62,640 bases of DNA from an uncultured Bdellovibrio sp. (GTDB taxonomy: Bacteria > Bdellovibrionota > Bdellovibrionia > Bdellovibrionales > Bdellovibrionaceae). The DNA is taken from NCBI GenBank assembly GCA_963932905.1, contig CAWVRN010000029.1, forward strand, positions 1 through 62,640, read 5' to 3'. How positions within the stretch are numbered: position 1 is the stretch's first letter; every line of letters starts with the position of its first letter. Position numbers and translations under genes: made by a program. Below, piece by piece: positions 54,616-62,640 of this stretch. Under the pieces are notes generated by a model, which searched no databases, had not been told where the DNA came from, and saw only the letters and a list, made by a program, of their open reading frames with translations.

Positions 54616-55185
54616 ATGGCCATAGATAAATCAACTCGTGAGCACATCGTTGAATCGGCTGATCGACTTTTTTACCACAGAGGTTTTGAACATACGTCTT
54701 TTGCAGACATTGCAGATGAGGTAAAAATCTCTCGCGGAAATTTTTATCATCACTTTAAGTCCAAAGATGAAATTCTTGAGGCGGTCATAGAACTACGTCT
54801 CGATCGCACACAACAGATGTTAGATAGTTGGGAATCGGATGGTCAAAACCCGACAGAGCGGATTAGAAAATTTGTCCATATACTTATTATGAATCAGACG
54901 AAAATAAAACTCTACGGTTGCCCGGTAGGAACTCTGTGTACTGAGTTAGCTAAGTTGAACCACGTCTCTAAACCTCACGCGAATAAATTGATGACATTAT
55001 TCAGGACGTGGCTTGCTAAACAATTTATAGCGGCAGGACGCAAAAAAGATTCAGATGAATTGGCCATGCATCTTCTTGCCCGTAGCCAGGGAGTTGCGAC
55101 ATTAGTCAACACTTTTCATGATGAAAAGTTTGTTAAAAGCGAAGTCCGTCGTATGGAAGAATGGCTAACATCTCAAATTTCTTAA
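54616..55185 (+). CDS. TetR-family regulator (NemR-like)
   Basis: TetR HTH (GFEHTSFADIA...GNFYHHFKSK); GCPVGTL Cys motif. Confidence 0.9.
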   Translation: MAIDKSTREHIVESADRLFYHRGFEHTSFADIADEVKISRGNFYHHFKSKDEILEAVIELRLDRTQQMLDSWESDGQNPTERIRKFVHILIMNQTKIKLYGCPVGTLCTELAKLNHVSKPHANKLMTLFRTWLAKQFIAAGRKKDSDELAMHLLARSQGVATLVNTFHDEKFVKSEVRRMEEWLTSQIS

Positions 55186-55207
55186 ATATTTTTTTGGAGA
55201 ATGAATT

Positions 55208-55498
55208 ATGTTTGTTGTTTTGTTGAAGTTTTCTAGTCATCGCGATCAGGCGGGTAAGTTTATGGACGGGCATATGAAGTGGCTGAAGCAAGGATTCAAT
55301 GACGGAATATTTTTGCTTTCAGGAACCATTAAGCCGAGGTTGGGAGGCGCGATTATAGCGAATAATACATCTTTGAATGAACTTTCTAAGAGAGTGGATT
55401 CCGATCCATTCGTTATTGAAAAAATCGTAACGGCCGAGATTGTTGAAATTGAGCCCGGCAAAGCCGATCAGAGGTTCGATTTTCTCTTAAAGGGGTAA
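55208..55498 (+). CDS. YciI-family protein
   Basis: HMKWL...LLSG...GGAII...DPF. Confidence 0.85.
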   Translation: MFVVLLKFSSHRDQAGKFMDGHMKWLKQGFNDGIFLLSGTIKPRLGGAIIANNTSLNELSKRVDSDPFVIEKIVTAEIVEIEPGKADQRFDFLLKG

Positions 55499-55515
55499 AA
55501 CATAAGTAGGACTCA

Positions 55516-56063
55516 TCAGCTTCGTTTTCTAAACTCAGACGGAGAAAGTCCTACTTCTCGAATAAAAATTTTCCTAAATGATGAAACATCGCTAAGACCA
55601 ATTTTTTCAACAATTTCTTCGAGGCTAAATCTTTTTGTTCTCAGTAACCTTTTGGCTAGCTCAATTCGTTTTTGCTGAAGTAGTTGGTTAGGCGTCAGTC
55701 CACACTGTTCGACAACTTGCCTTTGAAAATTTCTTTGACTTGTATTCATTTGCTTTGCCATTTGAGAAACTTGAATTTTTCGATGGATATTTGCTTCAAT
55801 CCAGCTATATAGTTTTTTAAATCTAGGGTTGTTATCGTCTCTATCGAGTTCAGTACTTGAGTAGATGGATTGACTTTGTCGAGTTGTGTCCGCCAAAATT
55901 CTTTGTGCGACCGTCCTGGCGAGGTTCGTTCCAAAAGTTTTACCGACAATAGACAATGTTAAATCAACAAACGCTAAATATCCTCCGCTTGTTATTATTT
56001 TTTCGTTTTCAATCAGCATGGCGTTACTATCCCAATTGACTGAAGGGTAACGAAAATGAGCTG
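55516..56063 (-). pseudogene. 5'-truncated GlxA-family (DJ-1/PfpI plus AraC) regulator
   Basis: Frame begins mid-DJ-1 domain (RYPSVNWDSNAMLIENEKIITSGG) immediately after the previous stop codon; AraC HTH intact. Confidence 0.75.
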
Positions 56064-56064
56064 A

Positions 56065-56796
56065 TCAAAAAGCCGTCGCAATACATGCTTTACCGTTGAT
56101 AAACGTATGTAAGTGGCCTGTGTTTTCTAAAAAAGTAATTTGGACTTTGTTATTCTTGGTATTTAGCACAATTTTTAATGTACCCTTATTTGTTTGATCT
56201 CTGAAATGCTTGTTAAATTCTGAATCCATTTCATTTAGTGGGGACGTATTGGCTGCTGGATTTAATGCAGGTCTGCTAAAACGAGCTCCACTTGGAAATG
56301 CATATTCAAGTCTAGCAAATCCTAAATTGGGCCCAAAACTAACATAAAATTTTTTTTCATCACCGGGTAAATCTGAACTTAGAGGCGTACAATTTTTACT
56401 ATAAAAATCTTCTTCTTCAAATAGTCTTTTTTGAATACAAGGTTCTCTGTTAACAGCCTTACCATCCATACTGATAATTCCATTTTTAACTGTAACATTC
56501 ATTTTCTGATTCCCCAAATCGCTTTCGTAAGATTTCACAGGTTTTCCGTGTTTGAAACTTAAAATTAGATTTTTTAATTGATATGTATATCCTGTTGATC
56601 CAGGCAAAGATTCAGTGAGCCACGCTTCCTCATTTTTGCTTTTAAAAATATATTTGCTGCCTTTGACAAGGCCATTGACTTCACATTGAAACATTCCGGC
56701 TTGTGCATCTTCTGCCGCCTGAAGTGTTGCGTTGGCAAAAGCAAAACTATATTTAAAAGTTGAAATCGTGAGTATCGCTAGCAAAATGAATTTCAT
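56065..56796 (-). CDS. Hypothetical secreted protein
   Basis: Signal peptide MKFILLAILTISTFKYSFA; AT-rich. Confidence 0.65.
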   Translation of the reverse strand: MKFILLAILTISTFKYSFAFANATLQAAEDAQAGMFQCEVNGLVKGSKYIFKSKNEEAWLTESLPGSTGYTYQLKNLILSFKHGKPVKSYESDLGNQKMNVTVKNGIISMDGKAVNREPCIQKRLFEEEDFYSKNCTPLSSDLPGDEKKFYVSFGPNLGFARLEYAFPSGARFSRPALNPAANTSPLNEMDSEFNKHFRDQTNKGTLKIVLNTKNNKVQITFLENTGHLHTFINGKACIATAF

Positions 56797-57056
56797 AAAA
56801 AAGTCTTCTTCCTGTTTGTTTAAGTCCGTTGTTTGAATAGAGCTGAGTCGAGGGTAAATATAAAGCTTACTCAACTAAATAACAAAACTTCTTAAACAAA
56901 AAGAAGACTAAGCGGCGTAAGTAGCTAATTTTATGTTTGATTTGGCGTTAGTAACGATTCGCTGAGTAAATCTCTACAAAATGTTCATTAAATATTTGAG
57001 TGCCTGAGGGCATTCGGCTACAATTCACCCTGTTTAATTTTACTTAGAGGTTTTCT

Positions 57057-58529
57057 ATGAGTCTTTCTAATAAATCTATTTTTTTGTTATTAGGTTTTTA
57101 CTTGGCCAGTTCGGTGGGACTTGCATTAGACCACTCCAGGCCTAAAACATGTACATCTTTGAATGATTTCAGCGGTCTGAACGAAACCTGTGTTGCGGCC
57201 GTTGTAAAACCTTTAACAGAAGAAGAGTTTCGCCAAGCTCTTTTGGTAGCAAAAGAAAAGGGATTGAAAGTTTCAATGGCTGGCCAGCAACACAGCTTAG
57301 GTGGGCACTCATTGGTACGAAACGGGTTAGTCATCGATATAAAAAAATATAATAGGATTATTGGTTTTGATAGTCGCACCCATGAAATCACGGTTCAATC
57401 AGGGGCGACATGGAAAGACATTCAAACATTCTTGGATCCAAAAGGGTTTGCTGTCGATGTTATGCAAAATTTTAATTTCTTCACAGTAGCTGGCAGCTTA
57501 AGTGCCAATGCGGGCGGCCTAAATACACAATCTAGTTCCATTTCTTCAAATGTAGTGTCGATCAAAATCATGTTACACGATGGCCAAGTCGTTACAGCTA
57601 GCCGCCATCAAAATAGTGAGCTTTTTAGCGCCGTCCTTGGTGGCTATGGGCTGTTTGGGATAATCCTTGAAGCCACTTTGAAAGTTACGGATAACGTTCT
57701 TTATAAAACAAAAGTTTGGAGAATGAATTACAAACAGTTCCCCGAATTTTTTGAAAAAAATTTAGCTCAAAATCCAAATGGAATGTTTCAAAATTATATC
57801 TCGATTGCGCCAAAGTCTTTTATGCAAGAAATGGTTGTGATGACCTACGAAGCGCAATCAGAGGTTGCTGAGGTTCCCCAATTAAAAGAAAATAAAGTTG
57901 AAAAAGCTACCGCACCTGTTATCGGATGGCTTTTGAATAAAGGAAAAAGTGATTCCTTCTGGAAAAATATCGCTTGGTTTTTAGAATATCGAGTTTCGAC
58001 GTGGATTCTTCCTGAAACGACAACTCGAAATCAAGTCATGAGTGCGCAAATGCCACCGTTGGCAAAGCACAAAAACGGTGAAGCATTTATTCTGCAAGTT
58101 TATCAGATGCCAAAATCAGAATTCGTAAACTTCTTGGATCGCCTTCGTACGGTAGCGCAGAAACATCATGCACCGATTGTTACGGCATCAGTGCTTCATT
58201 TAAAAAACGATGAAACAGTTTTTTTAAGTGCAACAGCGGGCGAGGATAGATTCACCATCGTACTAGGATTAGTGCAAGAAATAGATCCCGAAGCGGAACA
58301 AAAGATGACTGCATTTCACCGCGAGATGATTGATGAGGCCATCAAGCTCAGAGGGGCAGCCTATTTGACTCATAGAATGTCCTATACTCCCACTCAATTG
58401 CGCCAAATGTACCCTCAGATCGATCAATTCTTTGCACTAAAAAGAAAATATGATCCCAATACAGTATTCAGTAACCATTTTTATGAAAAATATGGAATGA
58501 GTGAAGAGATTAAATTTCAGAGTTTGTGA
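57057..58529 (+). CDS. Secreted FAD-linked oxidoreductase (VAO/ALO family)
   Basis: AGQQHSLGG, VQSGATW, TVAGSLSANA, GGYGLFGII, KRKYDP...FSN. Confidence 0.88.
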   Translation: MSLSNKSIFLLLGFYLASSVGLALDHSRPKTCTSLNDFSGLNETCVAAVVKPLTEEEFRQALLVAKEKGLKVSMAGQQHSLGGHSLVRNGLVIDIKKYNRIIGFDSRTHEITVQSGATWKDIQTFLDPKGFAVDVMQNFNFFTVAGSLSANAGGLNTQSSSISSNVVSIKIMLHDGQVVTASRHQNSELFSAVLGGYGLFGIILEATLKVTDNVLYKTKVWRMNYKQFPEFFEKNLAQNPNGMFQNYISIAPKSFMQEMVVMTYEAQSEVAEVPQLKENKVEKATAPVIGWLLNKGKSDSFWKNIAWFLEYRVSTWILPETTTRNQVMSAQMPPLAKHKNGEAFILQVYQMPKSEFVNFLDRLRTVAQKHHAPIVTASVLHLKNDETVFLSATAGEDRFTIVLGLVQEIDPEAEQKMTAFHREMIDEAIKLRGAAYLTHRMSYTPTQLRQMYPQIDQFFALKRKYDPNTVFSNHFYEKYGMSEEIKFQSL

Positions 58530-58641
58530 GTGTTAGAAGTAGAACCGTAGAACCATTAGTAATTCCATTTTGTTTTTCTAGAGTTTGCAGGTCTATCTCT
58601 GGGGTGTAAGTGCATTCGTTTTAATAAAACGGTCCTTTTAG

Positions 58642-59394
58642 CTAATGGCAGAGGTTTTTAAATACCATTTTATATTCAGCCAAAGTGCTAAGACCGACCG
58701 ATTTTCTAAGCTCATCAACTTTTTCAGGGTTTTCAATCGGTAGCGGTTCCCATTGTCCAGGACCAACACATCGACCTTGGGTACCATATCGCTGAAGCTT
58801 TCTTTTGTTTGGGTCACCAAATGATGAAGCTACGCGATCATATAGATAGGCATAGTTTGAAGGCTTTGTTTCATTTAATGGCCACAACTTTTCTAATATT
58901 TTGAGTACATTTTCTTGGAACTCGTGATCCTGATCTGCATGTTGAACTAATAGCCAAGCTTGACTCTCGGTATTTGCTCCGAATTCACTTATTTTAAACC
59001 AAGTATAGATTTTAAGAAGTTCTTTGAGATCAGCGGTGTTTTCAGAATCGACAGTCGCAGACTTTAATGAAAATTGTTTATGAAATTCATTTTTTTCATC
59101 TGGGGTATATGAGCTATTCAACGGTGTGTCCCAAAATTTTCTCATGTATTGGTCAATTTTAACCATGTTGTCGATCTTATTTTTAACCCATGTTTTGTTA
59201 GTTGGTTCCTGTGGTTGTAGTAAAAAATCAGATTTCATTTTTAGAATATTTTTATCATAGGTTGTAAGGTCACGCTCAACACGTGGATATAGCATTGCTG
59301 AAGTAGTATTATAAATTAGAATAAATGAAAAAATAACTGCAAAAAAAATCTGTTTTGCTTTTGTTTTGTTCACGATATTCTGTTTCGGGGTCAT
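58642..59394 (-). CDS. DUF6624-like exported protein
   Basis: DQYMR, D.ENT, AWLLVQHAD, YAYLYDRV, QRYGTQ, VDELRKSVGL. Confidence 0.8.
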   Translation of the reverse strand: MTPKQNIVNKTKAKQIFFAVIFSFILIYNTTSAMLYPRVERDLTTYDKNILKMKSDFLLQPQEPTNKTWVKNKIDNMVKIDQYMRKFWDTPLNSSYTPDEKNEFHKQFSLKSATVDSENTADLKELLKIYTWFKISEFGANTESQAWLLVQHADQDHEFQENVLKILEKLWPLNETKPSNYAYLYDRVASSFGDPNKRKLQRYGTQGRCVGPGQWEPLPIENPEKVDELRKSVGLSTLAEYKMVFKNLCH

Positions 59395-59749
59395 TTAGAG
59401 AGTATATCTTTATCATCTTAATTTTGAAACGCCGAACTAGATTTTCGCATAGCCTTATTTTGAGATTTAACTAAAATGTATACAGGTGTTAAGTTGATCG
59501 ATCAGCATATTGAGCTTTCGATCAAAGGTTTAGTTTTAAAGTCCGACTTCGGGTCAGACATTCAAATAAAAATCGAAAAATCTATCGAACTAGAACCGAT
59601 ACTTAGAATTTTTTGAGGAAAAGTCAGAGAAAAAATTGGGGTGATGTTAGGGAATTGAGCAATTTCAATTACTTAGGTGTTTTTTTGGGTCTAAAGAAGG
59701 ATCAAACAGTCGATTATTTTTCCCTTAAGTCGAATATAACCCTTCCGAT

Positions 59750-59802
59750 ATTAATAAAGTGGGAAGTTCCCACTTTATTAATTGGCCCACTTAGGGTATA
59801 AT
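59750..59802 (+). promoter_or_regulatory. Palindromic operator and -10 of the TA operon
   Basis: Perfect 16-bp arms ATTAATAAAGTGGGAA-G-TTCCCACTTTATTAAT; extra CCCACTT half-site; TATAAT at 59797-59802. Confidence 0.75.
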
Positions 59803-59825
59803 AAGTTATTACGGGGGCATAACAT

Positions 59826-60101
59826 ATGGGAGCTAAAAAAATGATCGATGTAAATAGAGTTGCAGATAGCAAAGGTCGTATTTCCCTCGGAGATAAGTTC
59901 TCTGGCAAACAATTTATAGTTGAAGAAAAGGCTAATGGCGAGATTTTACTAAAGCCTGCTGTGACAGTTCCAATTCAAGAAGAATGGTTATGGAAGAATA
60001 TGGACGCAATGAAAAAGGTGCAGACTGGACTCGGTCAGTTAAGGTCACCTAAGAGGAAATCAAGAGGATCATTCGCTAAATTTGTTAAAGACGAAAAGTA
60101 A
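59826..60101 (+). CDS. AbrB/MazE-like antitoxin
   Basis: DSKGRISLG...GEILLKP...EEWLWKN. Confidence 0.8.
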   Translation: MGAKKMIDVNRVADSKGRISLGDKFSGKQFIVEEKANGEILLKPAVTVPIQEEWLWKNMDAMKKVQTGLGQLRSPKRKSRGSFAKFVKDEK

Positions 60102-60112
60102 GATAAAAAGTC

Positions 60113-60409
60113 ATGAGTTTTACCTTAAAATTTACAGAGCAGGGAGATTCTGACTTAGGTGAGCTAGAAAAAGCTCGAAGCAAACAAGGCATCCTGAAAG
60201 CAGTTCAAAAATGTTTAGGTTATTTAGAGGTCAATCCAAAACATCCCAGTTTAAAAACCCACAAGTTCAATTCCTTGACTGGTCCTAATGGAGAAGATGT
60301 TTTTGAGGCTTATGCCCAGAACAACACACCGGGCGCTTATAGAGTTTTCTCGTGTTATGGGCCTGCGGCTAAAGAAATCACAATTATCGCTATAACACCA
60401 CATCCTTAA
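60113..60409 (+). CDS. RelE/ParE-superfamily toxin
   Basis: NPKHPSLKTHK, FEAYAQN...AYRVF, ITIIAITPHP; follows the antitoxin. Confidence 0.8.
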   Translation: MSFTLKFTEQGDSDLGELEKARSKQGILKAVQKCLGYLEVNPKHPSLKTHKFNSLTGPNGEDVFEAYAQNNTPGAYRVFSCYGPAAKEITIIAITPHP

Positions 60410-60448
60410 TGTTTTCGCAATATGCTACTGGATTGACAAATAAAGTTT

Positions 60449-60828
60449 GGAGGTTGCTTTGATGCTTGGAAGTCGGCCGAAGGATTGCATTTAATACAAA
60501 TTCAAGGAAACTCAATCTGGAGAGGTATCAGTTACGATCGCCCTTTAGTTAAAGATGAAAAAGCACGCCAACAGCAGTAGGTGGAAAGAATTTTTTCAAA
60601 GAGGGTAAAGGTATTCCCAAGCCATTGTTACTTGTACGACACGCAGGACACGGAAGCTGGGATGATGATTGCAATGCTATTCTTGGACTAACTAAAATGA
60701 ATTGGAATAACGACGGCCTCTATGATTTTTTGCCTGTGACCTTGGGATATTCAGAGGTTTTGGCGCGAACGGTAAAACGAATTCCTGATCTCGCTCCGAG
60801 ACCTTACGAATTCAGGTACTTCATGTGA
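60449..60828 (+). pseudogene. Prokaryotic Argonaute PIWI-domain C-terminal remnant (two frames, internal deletion)
   Basis: Frame 1 GCFDAWKSAEGLHLIQIQGNSIWRG; frame 2 FKEGKGIPKPLLLVRHAG...ILGLTKMNWNNDGLYDFLPVTLGYSEVLA...PYEFRYFM. Confidence 0.85.
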
Positions 60829-60838
60829 TGAGGATAAA

Positions 60839-61021
60839 ATGATTTCTAATAAAATCGAAAAAAATTTATTCTATTCATGGCAAAGTGACTCGGACGAAAG
60901 AGCTAATAAATTTCTCCAAAGAGATATTTTGAAAACAGCAATGAAAGCGATTCGCAAATCCGAACCGGAGTTGGCGATTAGAATAGAGTCAGACGCAACT
61001 GGATTAACTGGGAGGCTTTAA
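60839..61021 (+). pseudogene. 3'-truncated FYSWQSD-type (TIR/nucleoside-deoxyribosyltransferase-like) protein
   Basis: SD GAGGA; LFYSWQSD...N...IESDATGLTG, then stop where the domain would continue. Confidence 0.7.
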
Positions 61022-61035
61022 TGACTCTCAGAAAA

Positions 61036-61602
61036 CTAATTTGTATATTTAACTAAGATCCCAAAGTTACGAAAATTACAACTTCCATTCAAATTAGGAT
61101 TTGCTACAAATTGAAAAGTGACTTCGACATCAGTTGATTGAATCTTACCGATGGCTGTAATTTCAAATTGAGTTTCATCAAGTCTGCAAAGATTTCCAGT
61201 GTAACCCTCGGTGTAGATAATGGTAGCACCATTAAACTTTGATAGTAAATTTTGTTTTTCAGTTATATTTAAAGGGGAAGAGCTTTTAGAAAATAGTTTT
61301 TCAACTGAAGATTCATTGAGAATACCAACCTGGTAAGTATTCAGAAACTCTGGTCCTACGATTTTAGAGATTTCAAATTTTCCTGACTCAGAAAACAAAC
61401 CAAAAAGTGCGGCATTGTCTGAGTCTCCAAATTCTCTGATTAAACCAAATTTTTCAAAATTAATTTCAGCTTTTTTGTTTGGTTCATTTTTGTCGTTAGG
61501 GGATTGGATGGTTGGAGTTGGTGATTGTGGCGAAGATGAATCACTATTTTTAGAACATCCAACAAGTAAAAGAATTCCGATTAAAAACGTAAAAGATTTC
61601 AT
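61036..61602 (-). CDS. Hypothetical lipoprotein
   Basis: MKSFTFLIGILLLVGC lipobox, Ser/Pro linker, G-run SD. Confidence 0.75.
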   Translation of the reverse strand: MKSFTFLIGILLLVGCSKNSDSSSPQSPTPTIQSPNDKNEPNKKAEINFEKFGLIREFGDSDNAALFGLFSESGKFEISKIVGPEFLNTYQVGILNESSVEKLFSKSSSPLNITEKQNLLSKFNGATIIYTEGYTGNLCRLDETQFEITAIGKIQSTDVEVTFQFVANPNLNGSCNFRNFGILVKYTN

Positions 61603-62179
61603 AGTCCCCCCGCTAAGATTCGTAATATCGATAGCATTAATAGGATGTGCTGTAAACAAATGATGTGGGATTGACTTTCGGCATGGTTAAACAACTTAGA
61701 ACCATTAAAAAACTACAAGCTTGAATAATAATCATGTGTATAGTGTGAGGTCTCCACAGTTTGTTTTTATAGGCTATACAGCCATTGGCTTGATGTTTAA
61801 GATTCAAATACTTTTTACATAATTACTTAGGTTGTCCGTTTATTTGAAATTTGTGTAAAACCTTATAGCGGGCGAACCCTATTTGCCAACCAACTGATGG
61901 TTTAACCACCTAAAACTCATACCACCATGTTGATGGGCTTTGGCAGCATTGGTTGAGGCTTAGTTTGGATACAGAAATGCAAAGCCATTTTGGAATTTCA
62001 AATGGATAAACTATTTCAAAATTAAAAATATGTTCAGTCGGGCAGACCTTTTTAGGTCGGTAGCCTCACACTACTGAAGCGTGGCGTTCCGCTGGAGTCT
62101 TCTGGTCTTCTTGTTTAAATTTGCCAATGGTGCATCTTGGGATATTTACAATGGGGCTAAGCTAAATTATGCTATCAAG

Positions 62180-62608
62180 ATGAATCTCACAAAAAAGCAA
62201 ATATTAGACGCTGTCATCGAAGCCCATGAAATTGAAAAAAAGAGATGCGAAGAAACGGCGAAAACGTTTAAAGATAGAAAATCATTTCCTCAGGTCTCAG
62301 AAGAACAACTTTTAAAAGCAGCAAGAATTGTTAAGGCGCTAGAAGTCTTGCGGAGTTTTTCTAATTCTCCGGTAAAGAATTGCAAGCTTGTTGCTGAAGG
62401 GTTAGTGCTGCGAGCTTTGAATTCTATTTATGGTGAGCAGTTCTATTTCTTTTTTAAACAACCGGAAATTCCTTTTGTTTCTATTTCTCAGAAAATCACT
62501 GTGGCGATTGTCGATGCGGGTAAATTCAATCCGCGTAAAGTTGGTGAAATAAGAATCCACCAACAGGGGCGATCCGGTGAGGAATTTGAGGTTCATAACG
62601 GGTCTTAG
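62180..62608 (+). CDS. Hypothetical protein
   Basis: Open frame from MNLTKKQ; no recognised motif; start uncertain. Confidence 0.5.
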   Translation: MNLTKKQILDAVIEAHEIEKKRCEETAKTFKDRKSFPQVSEEQLLKAARIVKALEVLRSFSNSPVKNCKLVAEGLVLRALNSIYGEQFYFFFKQPEIPFVSISQKITVAIVDAGKFNPRKVGEIRIHQQGRSGEEFEVHNGS

Positions 62609-62640
62609 TGGGAAGCAATTAGTCATAAAAAAAGGAGCAT

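Follow-up and report, generated by a model that had tools for sequence, protein, structure and literature searches.

Features of the locus

We analyzed a stretch of 62,640 nucleotides from the draft genome of an uncultured Bdellovibrio species (hereafter the window). Near the end of the window there are two truncated genes. One derives from a prokaryotic Argonaute (pAgo) gene. The other derives from a family that we refer to as FYSWQSD, after a motif close to the N terminus of its members. A toxin-antitoxin-like cassette precedes them and a remnant of a small gene follows. The features are:

59750-59782, no strand assigned: perfect palindrome ATTAATAAAGTGGGAA/TTCCCACTTTATTAAT, 16+16 nt (33-nt span), 44 nt upstream of the two-gene cassette
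59826-60101, plus strand: 91-aa ORF, first gene of the toxin-antitoxin-like pair; putative antitoxin, from its position only
60113-60409, plus strand: 98-aa ORF, candidate RelE/ParE-like toxin (nearest ESM Atlas clusters are type II toxin-antitoxin RelE/ParE, score 0.98)
60449-60571, plus strand: pAgo remnant, piece 1, frame 1; matches PIWI residues ~328-368 in a short pAgo of ~480 aa, N-terminal part gone
60565-60828, plus strand: pAgo remnant, piece 2, frame 3; matches residues ~394-480, native stop codon kept
60830-60834, plus strand: Shine-Dalgarno-like GAGGA, 4 nt ahead of the FYSWQSD start codon, read directly from the DNA
60839-61021, plus strand: stump of a FYSWQSD-family gene, TIR-like (PF10137-type), 60 codons, containing LFYSWQSD; assigned with phmmer and a family HMM
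61885-61950, minus strand: 22-codon small-gene remnant, AAKAHQHGGMSFRWLNHQLVGK; tblastn match (86% over 22 aa, E 1.2e-9) of a 63-aa ORF from genome G002

A pAgo gene in two out-of-frame pieces

We found that the region from 60449 to 60828 contains two pieces from the C terminus of a short pAgo, which lie in different reading frames. Read directly, frame 1 from 60437 to 60580 gives ..GCFDAWKSAEGLHLIQIQGNSIWRGISYDRPLVKDEKARQQQ, with a stop codon after it. Frame 3 from 60559 to 60828 gives KSTPTAVGGKNFFKEGKGIPKPLLLVRHAGHGSWDDDCNAILGLTKMNWNNDGLYDFLPVTLGYSEVLARTVKRIPDLAPRPYEFRYFM and then a stop; it is open from 60559 until the TGA at 60826-60828 and reads ..PTAVGGKNFFKEGKGIPKPLLLVRHAGHGSWDDDCNAILGLTKMNWNNDGLYDFLPVTLGYSEVLARTVKRIPDLAPRPYEFRYFM. 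Piece 2 (89 aa) matched the PADLOC short-pAgo profile PDLC02377 ('pAgo_I, Class I') with an E value of 2.9e-36, at positions 376-457 of 457. Piece 1 matched the same profile with an E value of 4.7e-5, at positions 310-342. By these scores, the similarity of both pieces to pAgo is far beyond chance. Pfam at E≤1 gave no match for either pAgo piece or for the FYSWQSD stump. Pfam and NCBIfam were uninformative on the fragments, and their identities came directly from PADLOC and from custom HMMs.

We also built an HMM of 480 positions from 21 intact relatives. It placed piece 1 at positions 328-368 (E 1.7e-12) and piece 2 at positions 394-480. Positions 1-327 and 369-393 are missing. That is, ~128 of ~480 residues are left, split over two frames, instead of a complete MID and PIWI region of ~470-480 aa in one frame. 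The first-pass annotation of this DNA, made from the sequence alone, had extended a 67-aa ORF upstream and recognized in it a decayed pAgo C terminus, in agreement with the PDLC02377 matches to both pieces. It had also proposed an internal deletion near 60565. That proposal was correct, since the HMM positions and the frame switch put the junction within 60565-60571, with ~25 residues lost between the pieces.

Of 546 candidate homologs, 433 matched at E≤1e-3, and almost all of the latter are Piwi proteins of 465-488 aa. The best of these were 475-483 aa long and 73-91% identical. The closest, P0001, is an intact protein of 479 aa with 91% identity over 99% of piece 2. P0001, P0002 and P0003, all from Logan assemblies, are the closest intact pAgos and are 78-91% identical over the stump. 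A homology search had been suggested as the way to check the pAgo reading, and the matches of both fragments to the short-pAgo profile, together with the recovery of P0001, bore that reading out.

Piece 2 also aligned with residues 391-473 of PDB chain 8in8_C. This is the extreme C terminus of the chain and includes ..Y.FR.FM. The sequence of 8in8_C is common to PDB entries 8jkz, 8jl0, 8y7z, 8y80 and 8y82, and the pAgo piece matched the 8jkz chain with an E value of 5.2e-19. According to the available text of two reports, 8JKZ, 8JL0 and 8Y7Z are structures of the SPARSA system (GsSir2/Ago, Sir2-APAZ/short pAgo) of Geobacter sulfurreducens (PMC10781750, PMC11452484). Based on these matches, 60449-60828 is a stump left by a pseudogene for the pAgo subunit of SPARSA, a system made up of a short pAgo and SIR2-APAZ. 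The copy is dead and no function can remain; the first-pass annotation had called it almost certainly dead.

Loss of the SIR2-APAZ partner

Intact relatives of the pAgo stump are usually preceded by a gene for SIR2-APAZ. We compared the best 80 of 561 confirmed pAgo matches in species genomes; near-duplicates are included in this set (e.g., four of Sphingomonas type), and the genomic contexts of P0001-P0003 fall outside it. An HMM for SIR2-APAZ detected a same-strand ORF that ends at the pAgo start in 77 of the 80 intact loci. One other locus had SIR2-APAZ ~1 kb upstream, and the last two had no upstream DNA. Five upstream ORFs were tested against the PADLOC profile PDLC02419 (Aga_SIR2-PNTD1-PNTD2) and all five matched, with E values from 4e-153 to 1e-182. 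Genes downstream of pAgo were variable among the 80 relatives.

We looked for the same partner at the locus and in the genome around it. The SIR2-APAZ HMM found nothing credible, either in the window (best E 0.53) or in the 4.55-Mb genome (best E 0.25), and no second pAgo was found elsewhere in the genome. The position upstream of the pAgo stump is taken by the toxin-antitoxin cassette. The stump has lost its real partner, SIR2-APAZ. In an intact SPARSA system, a heterodimer of guide-RNA-loaded pAgo and SIR2-APAZ recognizes invader DNA, oligomerizes and depletes NAD+ by way of the SIR2 domain. Depletion of NAD+ upon RNA-guided detection of invader DNA is described in the available text on SPARSA (PMC10781750, PMC11452484).

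The downstream ORF is the start of a FYSWQSD-family gene

The TGA of the pAgo piece at 60826-60828 is followed by TGAGGATAAA and then by the ATG at 60839 (direct reading). The gap between stop and ATG is 10 nt and both ORFs are on the same strand. A gene cut short, 10 nt past the stop and with its own Shine-Dalgarno motif, had been described here; GAGGA at 60830-60834 and the 60-codon ORF from 60839 fit that description. Homology to other proteins extends to about codon 58 (..GLTG), after which there are only RL and a stop.

We searched 1.84 billion representative proteins with the stump (phmmer) and obtained 25 non-self matches at E≤1e-3, the best with 46% identity and an E value of 3.4e-7. 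The matching proteins were mostly 307-401 aa long, with ~340-350 aa as the commonest size, and aligned at their extreme N termini. An HMM of the N-terminal domain of the family matched the stump with an E value of 3.7e-17, at positions 3-54 only. A tblastn search of plasmids with the stump gave no match. A word-indexed search of a database of 5.8 billion clusters, which includes the source of P0001, gave no relative of the stump longer than 105 aa at E≤1e-3. From these alignments, 60839-61021 represents the first ~55 codons of a gene that is unrelated to pAgo and belongs to a stand-alone family.

The invariant columns in an alignment of the family are F7, W10, Q11, S12, D13, G54, D75, N90, N92, E96, G98 and D126. 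E96 is within NPNVLxELG, and the C-terminal regions past D126 could not be aligned. The stump breaks off near residue 58, ahead of D75, N90/N92, E96 and D126, and thereby lacks what is probably the active site. Because the break precedes the invariant Glu, the stump cannot be catalytic.

The FYSWQSD family

We found 555 loci of the FYSWQSD family in species genomes and 37 on viral contigs. Total lengths of the proteins range from 166 to 607 aa, and ~310-600 aa is typical. PF10137 (CAP12/Pycsar TIR) matched 56 of 59 N-terminal domains at E≤0.01, and the nucleoside 2-deoxyribosyltransferase family PF05014 matched five of the 59. For full-length proteins, PF10137 was found in 15 of 16 at E≤0.01, only 8 of the 16 reaching the gathering score of 24.7, and for further family members it was found in 26 of 40 at E≤1e-3. 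The stump itself has no Pfam match and is tied to these domains by the family HMM. PADLOC gave weak matches of the family to CBASS TIR effectors, PycTIR and the candidate PDC-S35. Neighbors of the family in the ESM Atlas were hypothetical proteins bearing PF10137. Aga/APAZ profiles had no match in any of the 16 full-length proteins (E≤0.01), PF13271 (DUF4062) had none in the 59 domains, and the best matches of the family profiles to PDB sequences were at chance level (E 0.86 and 1.3), with nothing credible among them. The downstream ORF had originally been called a TIR/NDT-like N terminus. With PF10137 in 56 and PF05014 in 5 of the 59 domains, matches that are weak but consistent, that label seems fair for the family.

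We also looked at what lies next to these genes. Among 141 immediate neighbors of 72 FYSWQSD loci there was no conserved neighbor; the sole clusters of neighbors were within Streptococcus (7 and 6 members) and within Nostocales (4 members). After 17 near-duplicate rows were set aside, 24 of 124 neighbors (19%) matched defense profiles at E≤1e-8, including IetA, GajA/B-like, PD-T4-6, HEC-06, SoFic and DrmC. Varied neighbors together with matches to defense profiles are the pattern of a stand-alone gene in defense islands. The proteins combine a conserved PF10137-type TIR-like core with a highly variable C-terminal region. Based on these results we infer that the family is most likely a one-gene, sensor-plus-NADase abortive-infection protein.

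A literature search on the motif YSWQSD found no paper. The family is widespread and unnamed, with a TIR-like core and a variable tail, and the locus points to it. Intact members from elsewhere would be reasonable candidates for phage-defense screens.

One member has a neighbor of a different kind. At locus L104 (7260-8345, plus strand), from a Bacteroidota MAG, a 362-aa ORF comes after the FYSWQSD gene, and the C terminus of this ORF matches Aga_Helical-REase (PDLC02411, E 2e-32). Despite this match to a pAgo-associated profile, there is no pAgo within 6 kb.

The two genes are not a conserved pair

We tested for co-occurrence of the two genes in both directions. With the FYSWQSD HMM, there was no match near pAgo in 80 genome loci (±6 kb) or in 19 loci on viral contigs (±5 kb). 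With the pAgo HMM, there was no match near FYSWQSD genes in 80 genome loci (the best 80 of 555) or in 37 loci on viral contigs. Each set of 80 comprises the best-scoring of ~560 matches, with near-duplicate genomes among them. Positive controls for these scans were detected in 80/80, 80/80, 19/19 and 37/37 loci. A tblastn search with the stump, combined with a motif search, gave only two matches on the pAgo loci, both at chance level (E 2.5 and 8.4).

We also scanned for the junction itself with a degenerate DNA pattern, MNWN[NH]D-gap-FY.WQSD, which finds exact motif matches within a fixed range of gaps. The metagenome collection contained one match, and this match carries the window's own ORFs. 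There were no matches in 185,579 species genomes (gaps of 98-189 nt) and none in the viral contigs. The pairing of pAgo and FYSWQSD is not conserved among the loci examined, a result read directly from these counts.

It is possible that the two stumps descend from a functional operon in which a catalytically inactive pAgo was accompanied by a downstream FYSWQSD TIR-like protein, acting as the effector or as a third component in addition to SIR2-APAZ. The first-pass annotation had favored such an ancestor, a pAgo with a downstream stand-alone TIR/NDT-like effector, as a pair that had not been characterized. The two genes share a strand, 10 nt separate them and the second has its own Shine-Dalgarno motif, just as expected of a true operon partner, and TIR-type NADases are bona fide effectors of pAgo in SPARTA, according to the available text on that system. 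However, the 10-nt gap carries little weight, because other FYSWQSD genes, too, can closely follow a gene on the same strand: such a gene, unrelated, lies within 30 nt upstream of 5 of 70 FYSWQSD genes, and it is a different gene each time. The annotation had proposed counting how often a FYSWQSD gene follows pAgo, and the count was 0 of 99 pAgo loci and, in reverse, 0 of 117 FYSWQSD loci. It had also said that its proposal should be dropped if the closest intact pAgos lack the downstream gene, and the gene was absent from all 80 genome loci and 19 viral loci; P0001-P0003, whose contexts are outside this set, are the one place left for the operon among the pAgo relatives. In addition, no other locus in three collections has the junction pattern, the partner of the clade is SIR2-APAZ, encoded upstream in 77 of 80 loci, all 16 full-length FYSWQSD proteins are free of APAZ/Aga matches, and the 5.8-billion-cluster database, P0001's source included, holds no stump match above 105 aa at the threshold used. 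We consider an ancestral operon improbable.

Another reading combines two ideas. One is that the sub-clade of P0001 is a rare lineage of SPARSA systems with a third gene, of the FYSWQSD family and translated in close connection with the others, that may have supplied a second NAD-degrading or signaling effector, with this locus as its sole visible trace. Separately, the FYSWQSD family would be an unstudied one-gene defense family with a TIR core, akin to Evangelion. We consider this reading distinctly improbable. The reading that we prefer is that a SPARSA pAgo stump lies beside the stump of an unrelated one-gene family in a decayed mobile defense island, and we regard it as very probably correct. 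The two stumps are ordinary genomic debris and do not represent a new Argonaute system.

The arrangement is present in other sequence data

The genome is in draft form, with 58 contigs, and the window ends in a repeat that is common to other contig ends. A juxtaposition produced by faulty assembly or binning might be suspected for these reasons, but public sequencing runs from three different studies (X1, X5 and X8) contain the same arrangement. In run X1, one record spans 59600-60953 and a second spans 60944-61700. A record from run X8 (60389-60581) covers the 5' break and the internal deletion, and a record from run X5 (60722-61013) covers the pAgo stop and the FYSWQSD start. The X1, X5 and X8 records are at least 99% identical to the window, and a metagenome contig, L167, has the same ORFs. 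A chimera is extremely unlikely, and the locus is not an assembly artifact.

In the public runs we found only the decayed form and no intact relative (X5, X6 and X8 were covered in part). A contig from run X6, a variant 95-99% identical to the window, has an extra 1-nt deletion at 60726 in the pAgo piece. The deletion is consistent with continuing neutral decay, although it comes from a single contig with a depth of 4.2 and is possibly an error.

These data also bear on whether the two short ORFs, of 67 aa and 60 aa, were kept for a new function of their own, for example as a small regulatory or decoy protein. Both ORFs are open, and the one of 60 aa starts with ATG behind a good Shine-Dalgarno motif. 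The arrangement also recurs at ≥99% identity in public runs of three studies as well as in a metagenome contig. Near-identity, however, indicates one population and not conservation across species, and the arrangement is absent from 60 relatives. Moreover, the FYSWQSD stump is without every invariant core residue past G54, and in the variant contig the pAgo piece has lost 1 nt, which shifts the frame. There is only a slim chance that the ORFs were retained for a function.

Comparison with known systems

Of the known systems, SPARSA is the one to which the pAgo stump is assigned. We take its short pAgo to belong to clade S1B and the pAgo of SPARTA to clade S2A (S1A is also used). By sequence, the stump falls in the SIR2-associated short-pAgo clade (PDLC02377, E 2.9e-36) and aligns with the C terminus of the solved chain. 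It differs from SPARSA in that the copy in the window is without SIR2-APAZ and is reduced to ~128 of ~480 residues in two frames. SPARSA is an already known system with a published structure and mechanism, and the locus in itself matters little.

SPARTA (short pAgo plus TIR-APAZ) resembles the locus in that the short pAgo of the window adjoins a gene with a TIR-type domain. In SPARTA, however, the TIR domain is fused to APAZ and encoded upstream, whereas the window has its TIR-like gene downstream, and no APAZ match was found for the family of this gene. We rejected membership in SPARTA: the pAgo stump scores best on Class I (SIR2-linked) profiles, and all 16 FYSWQSD proteins are without Aga/APAZ. 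We also rejected a long-B pAgo with a downstream effector (BPAN-type). The nearest relatives are short pAgos of ~480 aa, and their downstream genes are variable, with no FYSWQSD gene in the 80 loci.

The FYSWQSD core resembles CBASS Cap12, PycTIR and PDC-S35 in its weak matches to PF10137 and in its invariant Glu within NPNVLxELG; its scores on the PF10137 and PADLOC profiles are mostly near or below the curated cut-offs. Unlike Cap12 and PycTIR, the family is without a cyclic-nucleotide sensor (no SAVED, STING or cNMP matches). In the family, the TIR-like core is N-terminal, its first strand is F-Y-S-W-Q-S-D, and the C termini are variable and unannotated. Evangelion is a single-gene defense system with DUF4062, as given in the available part of a preprint (bioRxiv 10.64898/2026.06.25.731849). 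On that description it belongs to a different Pfam family, PF13271, which matched 0 of 59 FYSWQSD domains.

Surroundings of the two stumps

The cassette upstream of the pAgo stump occurs elsewhere in the genus. The region 59642-60405 is 87% identical in nucleotide sequence to congeneric G001:C19, which has the same two ORFs, different neighbors and no pAgo after them. The palindrome at 59750-59782 recurs in the G001 copy (96% over 28 nt) and is possibly an operator or a terminator. The 91-aa and 98-aa ORFs had no match in Pfam, NCBIfam or PADLOC, and the 98-aa ORF had none among PDB sequences. Its identification as a candidate RelE/ParE-like toxin is a lead, not proof.

Downstream of the FYSWQSD stump there is a convergent 207-aa lipoprotein-like ORF, and beyond it the remnant at 61885-61950, which corresponds to the C-terminal part of a small gene of 60-63 aa. 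In genome G002 the order is pAgo (plus strand), small gene (minus strand) and tyrosine integrase (minus strand), and in G009 the integrase and the small gene are adjacent. The order of pAgo (plus) followed by small gene (minus) is common to the window and G002. The pAgo of G002 is a fused SIR2-APAZ-pAgo (PADLOC PDLC02420, E 1.3e-208), as is that of G005, and this is another type of short pAgo than the window stump. Among 60 relatives, only three had a pAgo-like match (43%, 43% and 31% identity) and none had the FYSWQSD gene.

The small gene is hydrophobic (..GREAAKAHQHGGMSFKWLN..), encodes 60-63 aa and is present in several copies across the genus, for example in L003 (1770-1961, minus strand) and L175 (1482-1664, minus strand). 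In L003 (G002:C504, 1-1743) and in G005:C267, the fused SIR2-APAZ-pAgo is cut by the start of the contig and is followed by the small gene and the integrase.

Our preferred reading is that the block is the remainder of a small defense island, probably carried by an integrase element. No part of it is a working immune system now. SIR2-APAZ is gone, pAgo has lost its first two thirds, and the remaining third has a deletion of ~25 codons and a frameshift. The stumps would be adjacent because defense genes cluster on mobile islands and not because they functioned jointly. We infer the island from the stumps only, since no integrase was found in the window and the 30 kb before the block contain ordinary metabolic and regulatory genes, with no other recognizable defense gene. 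Scans for Rfam families and tRNAs (59300-62640 and 55000-62640) found nothing, the base composition of the block does not set it apart, and synteny across the genus is too poor for defining the borders of an island. Taken with the order of genes in G002, the block suggests an eroded integrase-borne island. The locus documents the decay of a defense system, with a toxin-antitoxin cassette and debris linked to an integrase close by; in other species of the genus, a fused SIR2-APAZ-pAgo resides on an element that bears an integrase.

Several repeats are present in this part of the window. A direct repeat (59454-59477 and 61036-61059, 79% of 24 nt) flanks the toxin-antitoxin cassette and both stumps. 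We did not call it an attachment site, since it is too weak in AT-rich DNA; it may be a relic of an old attachment-site duplication or due to chance. The last 55 bases of the window (62586-62640) are identical to stretches at the ends of or within contigs C35, C20, C41 and C54 of the same genome, and similar stretches are present in congeners. A second repeat of ~60 nt (62051-62110) has multiple copies in the genus. Both sequences are probably dispersed repeats that caused breaks in the assembly.
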